Origin: Octopus sinensis
Taxonomy: Eukaryota
Assembly: GCF_006345805.1 (NCBI RefSeq)
Contig: NC_043010.1
Coordinates: 20,832,001-20,896,000 of the forward strand
Direction of reading: 5' to 3'
DNA: 64,000 nt
How positions within the stretch are numbered: the first letter of the stretch is position 1; every line of letters begins with the position of its first letter. Shown here in pieces: positions 1 through 63,000 of the stretch. Position numbers: made by a program.

Positions 1-3000
1 ATGGTAAAACCATTGAATATTTCCGAATATTTAGTCTTTGAAAGTTGTCAAAATAAATAAATACACACACACACACACACACACACACACACACAGACAC
101 GCACACATGCAGATTACTACACTTAAGGTAGTAAGCTGAAATTAATTAGCTGTTGTAACTTAGAGGAATTAGTAATTTGCGTTAATTAAAATTCTTATTA
201 GGGTTATAATTTCGATGAGTTAAAAAGTAGTTTCCGCTCACTTAATCATGTATGATAACTAGTATACTTAACTGTATGTTACTCATGCAGAAGACCCACG
301 TGGGGAACTTTTTTTGCAGTGTCATTTCAACAAATAACAAATTATTACACTGAACGTGGGTGCTTATATGTGGTCACTCGATCGACTAGAAATAGCAGAC
401 AACTCTTCCTCAAATTATACCTTATTGCTAGAAGAATCAATGATTGGTTGGTGTTCTTTGAAATGCCTTTGGTAATAAATCTTCTCAGTAAGTGTTTAAT
501 GTTTAAACTATGGTTTTCTTGAGACAGATATCACTCCTCAACAAGAATGTTCTTCTATTTAGATGTCCGTTTCTTAAACTCAACGAGATCTCATCTGAGA
601 ATATCAGGGCTCAAACGACGCATTCAAGTTAGGACTATCCCAACAGTTTTTCTCAATTTAATATCAAAATATTCAATACAGTTTGAATTTTGTATATTTT
701 GGGGGGGCATCAGGCGATGAGAATGTGATTAAAGGGAGATTTGGTCGGTCTTTTATTGTCGTTTTCGTTGCTTAATTCAACTAGGCCCTGAATTAACAAA
801 CCTATGATCAAATAAATTTCAACCATCCTATATTTTAAGACGCATGTCTAAAACTACAGTATTCAGGGTGTCCTTTCCTTCTCTGAGCCAGTAAGGTTAT
901 AACAACACAAAACCCTGACTTCAAAATAAGAAGTTCAAGGAAATTCCCCCTGAAATATGATATAGACTTTTATTATTCATCGCCAGTAATAATCTCCCTA
1001 ATGGTGTGGTAAAAATTGGTTGAATATCTTGTTTCATGGTTTATTACATGTTTAATGGTTTTATTTTTGTACACATATGTTGCCTTCCAAATGGTTTCTA
1101 ATATTTTCATTGGCGCTACTGTCTACGATAAATGACTTTTGTTCATTATTAAAGATTATTACATATTTTAATTGCTTCTTTTTGTTTTGTTTCTGTTGAC
1201 AGATTTATTCCACGGTAACAATTACGTTTATTATACTTTCCGTAATATCTTTCATCGTAGTTACTCATCCTTGCTGCCGAATACAAGGCGATCGGGATTT
1301 TTTTGGAATGGTACACTTAAACGAAACGAGGGAGCAGGAATTTACCTCCATGCCTCATCCTGCGTTTATTGTAATTGATTTAGTTTGTCTCGCATTCTTT
1401 ACATGCGATTTGGCAATCAAATACTTCAGTTATCCAAACAGGAAGCTTTTCTTCATAAATGTATTGAATCTTGTGGATATTGCTTCGGTCTTACCTGATT
1501 TTATCGCTATTTTTATTAGCACTACACTGGATGTAGAAAAGGCCAATGAAGTAATGCACTACGTCAATATTTTAGGGTTATTTCGTTCCCTCAGGATTTT
1601 CCGATTGGCACGTTACGTCCCAGGATTGTGGATTTTGTTCTACACATTCAAAGCCAGTATCTGGGATTTGTTGTTGATGAACGGCTTTATGATGGTCGGT
1701 ATGATTGTATTTGCGACTTTAATTTATCATGCAGAAGATGATAATTTCAACAATATTCCTATTAGTCTGTGGTGGGCGCTGGTCACTATGACTACAGTTG
1801 GTTATGGAGATATGTTCCCATCAAATTTCTTTGGCTATATAGTTGGTTCCCTTTGCGCTATCACCGGCGTGTTAATGGTTGCTTTCACTGTTCCGATTAT
1901 TGTCAATAATTTCCTCATGTATTACACGTATTACATACACATTCAATCCAAACAAGAACTAAAGAGACGTCGGGAAAAACATAAGAAAAACGTTGAAAAA
2001 ACTGAAGAAGATAGCAAGGTTGGGGAAAGTGAAGAAGATGGTAACGTTGAGAAAAATAAAGAAGATGACAACGTTGAGAAAAAGGAAGAAGATGGCAACG
2101 TTGAGAAAAAAGAAGGAGGATGATAAACGAAAAATTGGATGGGTCAACGAAAGAAGCAAGATGAGAGTAGTCACCGATTCTTCAAGAGATACATGTACAG
2201 TTACAGTGAGTACAGCCGCAGAACGTTTAAATCAATACGCGCGAAGTTAACTTTCTAATCCTCCATTGTCAAACATCGATAGTCGCAAGCGATTGCATTT
2301 GGGTATGGCTAGAAGTTTAACGTCGGGCATTACTAACAAACAAACGAAAAATGGACAGTATCAGTTAAGAGATCCTTTTAAGCATCAGTTCAGAGACCCT
2401 AAATTTCAGCATTCTGCAAACATTATTGAGATATTTTAGACGTTGCCGTCCATTTTAAGGGTGAGAATTCACATTTCGCCTCTGAACAAGATATAAATAC
2501 TATGAAAGCATTCGCATTATAAGACATTATTATTACCATTATTATAATTACTGGGGTAGGTCAAACTAGTGCAAACCGTAGAATGCCGGACGAATCGCTT
2601 TCCTTAATTAACTTCTTGCACTGAAATCCCGGTAAGATCGTATTTAATTTGGTCTCTCTTGGGTCGATGATTTCATTAGCTACAATTAACTGGAGTCGAT
2701 TCTTATAAACTACATCACATTCAATCACACAAAAGTAAGCATCAGATATGATGGCAGTAGTGATGATGATGTTGATGACGATAATAATAAAAATAACACT
2801 TTAATTTAATCACCAAGTCTAATATGCCAAAGAAAAGGGGCTAGTCGAATATATACACCGTAACACGTGACCAGTAGCTTATTAAAAGCAAAGTTGACCT
2901 GGGTAGGGTTTGAATTCCCTACTTAAAGGGGCCCCGAAAAAATGCTTTAAAATACTTTTTACCCACCACTATAATCCTATGTAAGAGGAATTCATTCAAT

Positions 3001-60000: not shown

Positions 60001-63000
60001 CAGTGTAGTAAGCTCGACTCCGGAGTGAGTGATTGGTCAGAGACGCTAATGGACGTTAGTAGCTAACTCGACGGTTTGCCGCGACCCTTAGTGGGGGCCA
60101 CAAGAAAGATTTGTAATAGCAATTGACATGTGAGAGTTAGTGAATGGCTGCTCGGGGGACAAATTGCCTGGTTTGGATCGCCTGATCTATGCATCTTAGG
60201 ATTGTAAACAAGCTTTATCAAAAGAAAAGTAATCGCTTCCTTGGCGTTACTGAGAGATTTATCAACCTGTGATATCTAATTGAGGTAAGACGGTTTACAT
60301 GCCTAAGTTTAAATAATTTAGTGATGGGTTCAGCCTGGATCTCTAACAACATATCCACTGCTAAATGTGCTACTCAATAACTACAACTTATATAAATATA
60401 GCTAACAGGGTGTATCGCACGAAAGCATGCTACGCTTTGAATAATACTCGTGTATGGGTTATAGCAGAGCTGCAATAACTAATATTGAAGGATGTTGGGA
60501 TGACGGGACAAGCAAATAGGAAACGGCGATATCCATGCTGCGTAGTGGGTCGTTAATAACGTAAACAGAAACGAACTTCAAGTTTAATTATTCTCAGGCA
60601 GAAGATCTGGTCTGAACATCTGCAATATGGTGAAAAACCCATAAAGGCATAACAAGGGGCCAGCACTTTTCTAGTCATACCTCACCAGAAATACAACAGT
60701 CTTACCATAAGCTCTTCAGCACAATTTCTGTGTAATCATTTCCACTTGAAAAGGCAAAGGTCGGTCGAAGACTGAGGTGAAAACCACTTGCCCAGATTTT
60801 TGTATGGTTTCTGTTTGTACACATACGTTGCCTTCCAAAGGGTTTCTTTTTTCTTTGGTGTCATTGTCTGCAATAAATGATTTTTGTTTAATATTAATGA
60901 TTGTAACAAATTTTAATTGCTTCTTTTTGTTTTATTTCTATTGACAGGTTTATGGCATGGCGGCAGTTGTGTTTGTTATACTGTCCGTATTGTCTTTCAT
61001 CGTAGCTACTCATCCAGCTTGCCGAGTTCAAAGGAATCATGGTTTTTGGAAACGATTACACAGTAACAACACGGAACTCTGGGATATGTACCCCATTGCA
61101 CCTCATCCAGCATTGATTATAATCGATTTTATTTGTCTAGCATTCTTCTCATGTGACTTGTTCTTCAGGTTCATCACTTGTCCAGAATGGAAAAATTTCG
61201 CGAAGAATTCACTCAACTATGTCGACTTCGTTGCGATTCTTCCTGATTATATCGACATTATTGTTGTCTACACAGTTGAGGCAAATGTTGCATTGGAAAC
61301 CATGCACTACGTGAATCTTTTAAGGATCTTTCGTGCCCTCAGGATTTTCCGCTTGGTCCGTTATGTTCCAGGCTTGTGGATCATGCTGTACACATTCAAA
61401 GCCAGTTTCTGGGACTTGTTGTTGATGATTTGTTTTATGAATGTCGGTATGATTATGTTTGCCACTTTCATCTATTACGCCGAGGAGGAAAATTTCCACC
61501 ATATTCTCATTGGTATGTGGTGGGCACTGATCACTATGACTACGGTTGGTTATGGAGATATGATTCCAACGAGTAGCGTAGGAAAACTTATTGGTTCTGT
61601 TTGTGCTATTGCTGGTGTGTTAATGGTCGGTTTCACTGTTCCTATAATCGTCAATCATTTCTCCATGTACTACAAACACATGCAATCCATGCAAGCAGCA
61701 CGAAAACGCGACGAAAGAGCCAAGAAAGAAATGGATAGGGTTACAAAATTGACACAAGAGTAAAATGAACAGAAGTTCCTTATCCGAACGAAGCGAAAAA
61801 AGAACCCCAAAATTCTTCGAAACCCCAAAATAGAGTTACAGTGAGTGTAACACAAGAAAGCTCAAATCAATATGGACAAACTTCTCTTTCAAATCCGCCA
61901 CCTCCTTCCTTTGAAGGTTTATCAAACACCAAAAGTGACCGGCGATTGCGTTCTGGTATGACTAGAAGCGTAACGTCCGGTAATTACGATTACCAAACGG
62001 TAAATGGATTAGGAGAAACTAAAATGTAGTACTCTGCAAAGATTATTGGGATATTTTAGATGTTACAGACCAGAGTTCACATTTCACCTCTGGACAAGAT
62101 ATAAATGCCATAAAAGTATTCTCATTATAAGACATTATTACTACCATTATTCTAAAGGCGGCGAGCTGGCAGAAACGTTAGCACGCCGGGCGAAATGCTT
62201 ACCAATATTTCGTCTGCCGCTACGTCCTGAGTTCAAATTCCGCCGAGGTCGACTTTGCCTCGGCGTCGATTAAATAAGTACCAGTTACGCACTGGGGTCG
62301 ATGTAATCGACTCAATCCGTTTGTCTGTCCTTGTTTGTCCTCTCTGTGTTTAGCCCCTTGTGGGTAGTAAAGAAATAGGTATTTCGCTCAACGCTACGTT
62401 CTGTGTCCAAATTTCGCCGTGCTCGACTTTGACTTTAATCCTTTCGGGGTCGATAAAATAACTTCTAGTTGAGCAGTTGGGTCGATGTAATTTACTCATC
62501 TCCAAACTGCCCTTGTGTCAAAATTTTGAAATAATTATTACCATTATTATAGTTAATGCGGTGTGTGAAGCCAGTGAAAACCGTACAATGATGGACTAAA
62601 AGCATCATTAACTTCCGTCATTGAAATCCTGTTCAGATAGGATTTTGGTTTGTCTAGGGTCGATATTTTTTAGCTGCAATCAGCTGGAGTCGACTCTTAA
62701 TCACTATATAACTTCACGCCATCTTTGAAAGAAGGCACCGGTTGTAATGGTGTGACGATGATGATTGGAATAATAATAGTTCTTTCTACTATAGGTACGA
62801 GGCCTGAAATTTGGGAGGTGGACAGTCGATTACCTCGACTCCAGTACGCAACTGGTACCTATTTTTATCGATCCCGAAAGGATGAAAAGCTAGTTCGACG
62901 CTGGCAGAATATAATGATACTACTACTACTACTACTACTACTACTACTACTACTACTACTACTACTACTACTACTACTAATAATAATAATAATAAATAAT

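Follow-up and report, generated by a model that had tools for sequence, protein, structure and literature searches.

The stretch of DNA analysed here, 64,000 nucleotides of the Octopus sinensis genome (assembly GCF_006345805.1, contig NC_043010.1, forward-strand positions 20,832,001 to 20,896,000; hereafter the window, with coordinates counted from its first letter), contains four exons that each encode the membrane core of a voltage-gated potassium (Kv) channel. The window is free of N and includes 21 stop-to-stop open reading frames (ORFs) of at least 150 amino acids (aa). Four of these 21, all on the plus strand, encode a Kv core (1200-2123, 19039-20217, 45388-46473 and 60945-61763), and all four match the Pfam domains Ion_trans (E-values from 2e-30 to 5e-33) and Ion_trans_2. 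Here, we report an analysis of these exons, their flanking sequences and the public gene models that include them, with an emphasis on the possibility that they serve as alternative endings of a single gene.

A common acceptor before four channel cores

The exons, denoted copies c1 to c4 (Table 1), start at intervals of 17.8, 26.3 and 15.6 kb. An earlier note on this DNA had described four exons on one strand, 15-26 kb apart, each with the transmembrane segments S1 to S6, a C-terminal tail and a stop codon, and this description was borne out for all four. No further degenerate Kv fragments were detected in the window, where a tblastn search with two Kv cores returned these four loci alone. Every copy contains TMTTVGYGD, with the K+ selectivity filter TVGYG. 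The S4 segment has five arginines in c2 and c4 and four in c1 and c3, the fifth being replaced by leucine in c3.

All four ORFs open at the CAG of a TTGACAG acceptor with a pyrimidine tract just 5' of it. Every acceptor has an in-frame TGA within TTGACAG, so that no ORF can be extended upstream. Copies c2, c3 and c4 have a methionine at exon residue 4; c1 has none before S1 and, given the in-frame TGA in its acceptor, needs an upstream exon. The extended acceptor motif TTTCTRTTGACAGRTTT occurs exactly four times in the window, compared with 0.12 occurrences expected, and four were reached in none of 100 shuffles. The common phase-0 acceptor that the earlier note placed before S1 was thus found in 4/4 exons, and the junction between ...NGAK and IFGM in the O. 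sinensis protein XP_036364621.1 is consistent with phase 0.

Conservation extends into the introns. About 150 nt 5' of each acceptor are conserved, with a mean column identity of 89% over 210 aligned nt, and the intron ends of c1 and c2 are 95-98% identical, above the level of the coding core. A 13-mer, GTTGCCTTCCAAA, is invariant in these intron ends (at 1079 for c1); taken alone, it is within chance expectation, with 7 of 100 shuffles yielding four matches at two or fewer mismatches.

Behind S6, the copies end in different ways. The tail of c3 contains PPSF (PPSY in O. bimaculoides), and that of c1 is a 27-nt tandem repeat at 1989-2115 within which its early stop lies. The PPxY motifs are putative ligands of WW domains, and the C-terminal ends of the S/T-x-hydrophobic type putative PDZ ligands. 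The early stops of c1 and c4 are common to O. bimaculoides, in which the c4 orthologue ends in KLTEE. The stop of c4 is followed by a relic of a long tail in another frame, open for approximately 87 codons, with DNA 94-97% identical to the c3 tail; this identity would reflect a recent conversion into DNA that no longer codes. A tiny intron that mends the frame of the c4 tail was considered and rejected, the gap from stop to relic being, by inspection, about 30 nt or less and thus too short. An out-of-frame relic of the ancestral tail also precedes the 3' flank of c1, which is 85-97% identical to that of c3 in sliding windows. Between c3 and c4, the segments 45252-46611 and 60814-62155 are 83% identical, and the 3' flank of c2 yielded no such match to the flanks of the other copies. 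The related 3' flanks that the earlier note had attributed to every copy are therefore a property of c1, c3 and c4.

Table 1. Coordinates of the array and of other features in the window (c1 to c4, the four Kv core exons)
Feature	Position	Strand	Description
c1	1203..2123	+	S1-S6, short acidic repeat tail; 306 codons and TAA
c2	19042..20217	+	S1-S6, long tail with PPSY, end ETSML; 391 codons and stop
c3	45391..46473	+	S1-S6, medium tail, end ETKM; 360 codons and TAA
c4	60948..61763	+	S1-S6, tail cut short at KLTQE; 271 codons and stop
Intron end and acceptor of c1	1053..1202	+	conserved; pyrimidine tract, TTGACAG
Intron end and acceptor of c2	18892..19041	+	conserved
Intron end and acceptor of c3	45239..45390	+	conserved
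Intron end and acceptor of c4	60801..60947	+	conserved
Fifth exon	8240..8356	+	38 codons and TGA, no channel domain; tail of O. vulgaris CAI9732656.1
3' flank of c1	2399..2630	+	homologous to the start of the c3 3' untranslated region (46463-46694), 88%
Relic of long tail behind c4 stop	61769..62032 (approximate)	+	other frame open
K_chan_RES matches (Rfam RF00485)	1797-1910, 19624-19737, 45988-46101, 61545-61658	+	pore-to-S6 coding sequence, all four copies
Retrotransposon with reverse transcriptase	31995..35080	+	in the spacer between c2 and c3; does not belong to the channel gene; RVT_1 at 32638-34269, E-value 1.7e-28

Gene models and the T1 domain

We searched the window for the T1 domain, the assembly domain of Kv channels. 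Four relatives that carry T1 served as tblastn queries, each with its 200 N-terminal residues, and the best match had an E-value of 0.083, on the minus strand. A T1 hidden Markov model (HMM), applied with its filters disabled to the 4012 six-frame segments that have 8 aa or more, reached an E-value of 2.9 at best. No T1 was thus detected there by either search. The HMM was built from 41 T1 regions and matches 53 of 122 collected proteins, the 41 training sequences among them. The earlier note, which had seen no T1 in any spacer and proposed searches of this kind, was accordingly correct for the window.

Public gene models do contain a T1 joined to exons of the array. In O. sinensis, residues 194-584 of XP_036364621.1 (P0001, 'Shaw-like isoform X3') are 100% identical to c2, and its T1 is recognized as BTB_2 (PF02214). 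A second O. sinensis model, XP_036364619.1 (P0121, isoform X1), also consists of T1 and c2; the sole difference between the two isoforms is their short first coding exon, and over the common part 580 of 581 residues are identical. The 19 kb that precede c2 do not contain the T1 of these models, which therefore lies 5' of the window, so that the intron spans c1. In O. bimaculoides, T1 is joined to the c2 orthologue in A0A0L8HV49/XP_014769438 (P0002, 597 aa) and to the c1 orthologue in A0A0L8HTU3 (P0006, 506 aa). The first 201 residues of these two proteins are identical and are followed by a c2-type core in one and a c1-type core in the other. With T1 alone as the query, three clusters were recovered at E-values of at most 1e-30 among 604 candidates, and these are P0001, P0002 and P0006.

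A search for shorter proteins with T1 yielded P0123, P0124 and P0125 as three of four candidates. P0125 is a partial Argonauta model in which T1 is joined to S1-S2 resembling c2 and c3. In the fragment P0124, GAK is followed by VSI..., which would fit read-through into the intron at a T1 donor of the GTAAGT type. P0123 (CAI9732656.1, from O. vulgaris) is a T1-only protein of 263 aa that consists of T1 and 38 other residues. A small fifth exon of the window (exon 8240) codes for this tail at 8240-8353, matching 37 of its 38 residues; it has an AG directly 5', TGA at 8354-8356 and AATAAA at 8631, and is unique in the window. At the level of gene models, the T1 donor is hence joined to three exons of the window, namely c1, c2 and exon 8240. 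Exon 8240 is located between c1 and c2 and was absent from the list of the earlier note.

The proteins that match the array carry Shaw-like names in the databases. Among solved structures, the closest is Kv3.1 (8f1c; E-value 8.5e-78), with both T1 and core matched; Kv2.1 matches almost as well (4.5e-73), followed by Kv4.2 (1.7e-63) and Kv1.2 (about 1e-60). The pore-to-S6 coding sequence of each copy additionally matches the Rfam family K_chan_RES, with scores of 70.9 bits for c1, 66.1 for c4, 51.7 for c3 and 49.1 for c2 (gathering threshold, 51), and the edited Ile codon of that family aligns with the second Ile of VPIIV in S6. A role of these segments as an editing hairpin of the Kv1.1 type is not supported by folding, with z-scores of -0.50 to +0.32, no better than shuffles, and the matches probably reflect coding conservation.

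Conservation of the copies and exchange between them

In a tree of 21 cores, the array forms a single clade (support 100/99) with the topology (c1,(c2,(c3,c4))). The four O. sinensis copies have one partner each among the O. bimaculoides proteins, in a one-to-one manner, with pair support of 80-98; P0010, from another source, is a further sequence of the c1 type. None of the eight orthologous frames, four per species, is interrupted, and the stops are at the same positions. Between species, the identity of core and tail is 86.7% and 68.5% for c1, 91.1% and 76.5% for c2, 86.4% (197 of 228 residues identical, compared with P0005) and 76.3% for c3, and 86.8% and 89.7% (for a tail of 29 aa only) for c4, so that in c1-c3 conservation is stronger in the core than in the tail; for T1 the identity is 90.6%.

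Further evidence of maintenance comes from conserved sites and from the pattern of substitutions. Across 60 columns with at least 95% conservation among 113 more distant relatives, O. sinensis c1 to c4 deviate at 5, 6, 7 and 5 (53-55 kept), and the O. bimaculoides orthologues at 5, 6, 4 (of 58) and 6. Most of these deviations are common to the whole clade, and retention in c3 and c4 is on a par with that in c2. Paralogous cores differ in length by 3, 9, 12 or 15 nt, all multiples of three, and the differences between them are spread significantly unevenly over codon positions in 6/6 pairs, with third positions favoured in five of the six. In simulations of random substitution, which modelled substitutions only, applying half of the observed divergence preserved the frame in 4-10% of runs and applying all of it in 0.2-2%. 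The argument of the earlier note, that open cores speak against dead duplicates, is sound, with the caveat that patchy gene conversion can help keep frames open.

Such conversion is apparent in the sliding identity along the copies, which is that of a mosaic. The near identity of c1 and c2 at the intron end drops to 87-88% at the start of S1 and to 53-65% across the S2-S3 region, and c2 and c4 are 90-100% identical over 19295-19655, from S3 to the pore. In the S3-S4 linker, VVYTVEAN is common to c2 and c4 in O. sinensis, and the corresponding sequence in O. bimaculoides is V(T/A)NTAETN; near identity of c3 and c4 over S1-S3 is confined to O. bimaculoides. These species-specific shared states indicate that conversion took place after the species split, and this post-split conversion accounts for the unequal branch lengths in the core tree. 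We considered decay as the cause of the long branches of O. sinensis c3 and c4 (0.16 and 0.15, compared with 0.032 and 0.043), which are better explained by the homogenization of c3 and c4 across S1-S3 in O. bimaculoides.

The spacers contain the transposons and microsatellites reported in the earlier note, including a reverse transcriptase-encoding element, short interspersed nuclear element (SINE)-like repeats and many microsatellites. The 3' part of the retroelement between c2 and c3 recurs as a partial inverted copy at 10668-11210 on the minus strand, 97.6% identical, which suggests recent activity. A weaker reverse transcriptase fragment is located at 50326-50982. The SINE-like family, with units of about 160-240 bp, is represented by many copies on both strands (among them 13291-13521, 15918-16178, 17675-17938, 43800-44456, 59050-59289 and 62155-62382), some of which are arranged at 43853-44456 as tandem units of 184 bp.

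Interpretation and relation to known systems

We favour, with moderate confidence, the view that the window is the 3' part of one Octopus gene of the Shaw/Kv3 type in which the terminal exon has been tandemly duplicated to four copies and a single 5' T1 donor is spliced to alternative acceptors. The duplicated unit would be a large terminal exon with S1-S6, tail, stop and 3' untranslated region, and the T1 or assembly exon or exons would be situated 5' of the window, with a single donor. This donor is joined in gene models to c1, c2 or exon 8240 and would probably be joined to c3 and c4 as well. Each message would end at its own stop and poly(A) site, making the choice exclusive, and the products, having T1 in common, would be predicted to co-assemble. 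They might differ in function through the number of S4 charges, through the residues that flank the pore, and through the tails: c2 has PPSY and ends in S/T-x-hydrophobic, c3 ends similarly, and c1 and c4 have neither feature.

Several observations weigh against this view. The T1 joins are known from predicted gene models, that is, from annotation alone. The earlier note had proposed that one upstream T1 exon can be spliced to any of the four copies; the models bear this out for c1 and c2, and for c3 and c4 it stays a prediction, given that no protein in which T1 is joined to a c3 or c4 core was found in our database searches. All c3 and c4 models lack T1, namely P0005 (A0A0L8HTU5), P0004 (XP_052828570.1) and the window's own P0003, and the O. 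bimaculoides c4 protein P0004 starts in a repeat-derived exon of 22 aa instead. O. sinensis c1 and c3 are not among the proteins in the best 120 matches. The dN/dS (ratio of non-synonymous to synonymous substitution rates) of paralogous cores is fairly high, 0.32-0.81 with the top values for c2-c4, although conversion complicates these values just as it distorts the branch lengths of the tree. The same pair shows the weakest codon-position bias (p = 0.048), with more changes at first than at third positions. Conversion tracts could hold even unused copies open. Finally, AATAAA or ATTAAA hexamers first appear 242-663 nt past the stops, which is weak evidence for poly(A) sites, given how common such hexamers are in AT-rich DNA. 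As to the missing proteins, the lack of a T1-c3 or T1-c4 entry describes the annotation and does not show that such RNAs are absent.

Three other explanations have to be weighed. The ordinary layout of tandem paralogues would be that of four genes in which every core has a T1 exon to itself in the preceding spacer; we found nothing in support of it, the six frames of the window yielded no T1 in either search, and the T1 of the c2 model is outside the window. This layout is very improbable, and only T1 exons that escaped both tblastn and the HMM, by being very short or highly diverged, would bring it back. It is considerably less far-fetched, if still unlikely, that c3, c4 or both are transcribed alone from a local, possibly repeat-derived first exon and give rise to T1-less subunits that start at the methionine before S1. 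The position of that methionine in c2, c3 and c4 would allow this, the absence of T1-c3 and T1-c4 proteins agrees with it, and the first exon of P0004 resembles the SINE-like repeat of the window (five matches, the best with 12 of 15 residues at 49313-49357). The same resemblance, however, makes the exon look like a prediction artefact, and we give it little weight as a sign of an independent promoter: the first 36 aa of the T1-bearing isoform X1 are also similar to the translated repeat. Moreover, c3 and c4 have exactly the same conservation of the acceptor and of some 150 nt of intron as c1 and c2, which take T1.

Slightly less plausible again is that c3 and c4, and perhaps c1, are unused duplicates whose frames are kept open by conversion from a used c2. 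The tracts described above (c2-c4 over 19295-19655, and the c3 tail compared with the stretch behind the c4 stop) are what this would require, as are the species-specific states common to c2 and c4; the c2-c4 dN/dS of 0.61-0.81 and the arginine lost from S4 of O. sinensis c3 point in the same direction. The tracts are only partial, however, and beyond them third positions are favoured and indels are in frame. Open frames with identical stop positions in two species, the retention of conserved sites at the level of c2, and the low fraction of simulated cores that survive even half the divergence, with indels uncounted, all argue against disuse.

Under the favoured single-gene model with alternative acceptors, a more far-reaching and only tentative proposal is that all four cores and exon 8240 are regulated alternative endings of one unit, such that a neuron, since all products would have T1 in common, could use exon choice alone to set the mix of voltage sensors, pores and targeting tails in its tetramers of the Kv3 type. 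The T1-only product of exon 8240 could then act as an assembly brake. The handle for the choice might be the intron block next to the acceptor, which contains the invariant 13-mer and is kept near-identical by gene conversion or by selection. Kv diversity is usually attributed to gene number, heteromers within subfamilies, minor changes in splicing and, among cephalopods, RNA editing. A whole sensor-and-pore module that varies behind a single assembly domain would add another route to it. The common T1 would then guarantee the co-assembly of variants, which bears on the joint evolution of T1 compatibility and core divergence. There is also a warning for annotation, in that c3 and c4 are now modelled as T1-less fragments or not at all. 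Our literature searches, which covered main papers, found no description of the octopus array, and the passages retrieved from bioRxiv 10.1101/2025.09.21.677649 do not mention octopus.

The array shares with Shaw/Kv3 (KCNC) channels the six-transmembrane core, TVGYG, the S4 arginine repeat and, in the gene models, the H..C..CC pattern of T1, and differs from them in S6, where the copies read VPIIV instead of PVPVIV. The layout is also alike. Vertebrate KCNC genes have an intron just before S1 and one large core exon. To our knowledge, however, known Kv3 splicing alters the far C-terminus only, whereas the variable unit in the octopus is the whole S1-S6 core. Tandem arrays of large, self-contained variable exons are likewise characteristic of the clustered protocadherins and UGT1A, in which the variable exons are 5', have a promoter each and are joined to constant exons. 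The octopus array is, as the earlier note rightly put it, the inverse of that arrangement: the constant T1 part is 5', and the variable exons that follow it are terminal and carry stops.

Other parallels come from Drosophila. Shaker, in the passages of PMC9989356 that cite Kamb 1988 and Timpe 1988, is described as having alternative 5' and 3' exons, and to that extent is likewise a single Kv gene diversified through alternative end exons; according to the same passages, its central core is constant, whereas the octopus array exchanges sensor and pore. Loci of the mod(mdg4) and lola type, with more than 30 isoforms according to the abstracts of PMC6237743 and PMC13490949, combine a common N-terminal oligomerization module, the BTB domain, with one out of a large set of alternative 3' terminal exons, and T1 itself has the BTB fold. 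They encode transcription factors, and mod(mdg4) trans-splices separately promoted 3' exons, in contrast to the octopus array, which has only four or five alternatives and shows no sign of trans-splicing. The array is best seen as a variant form of alternative terminal exons.

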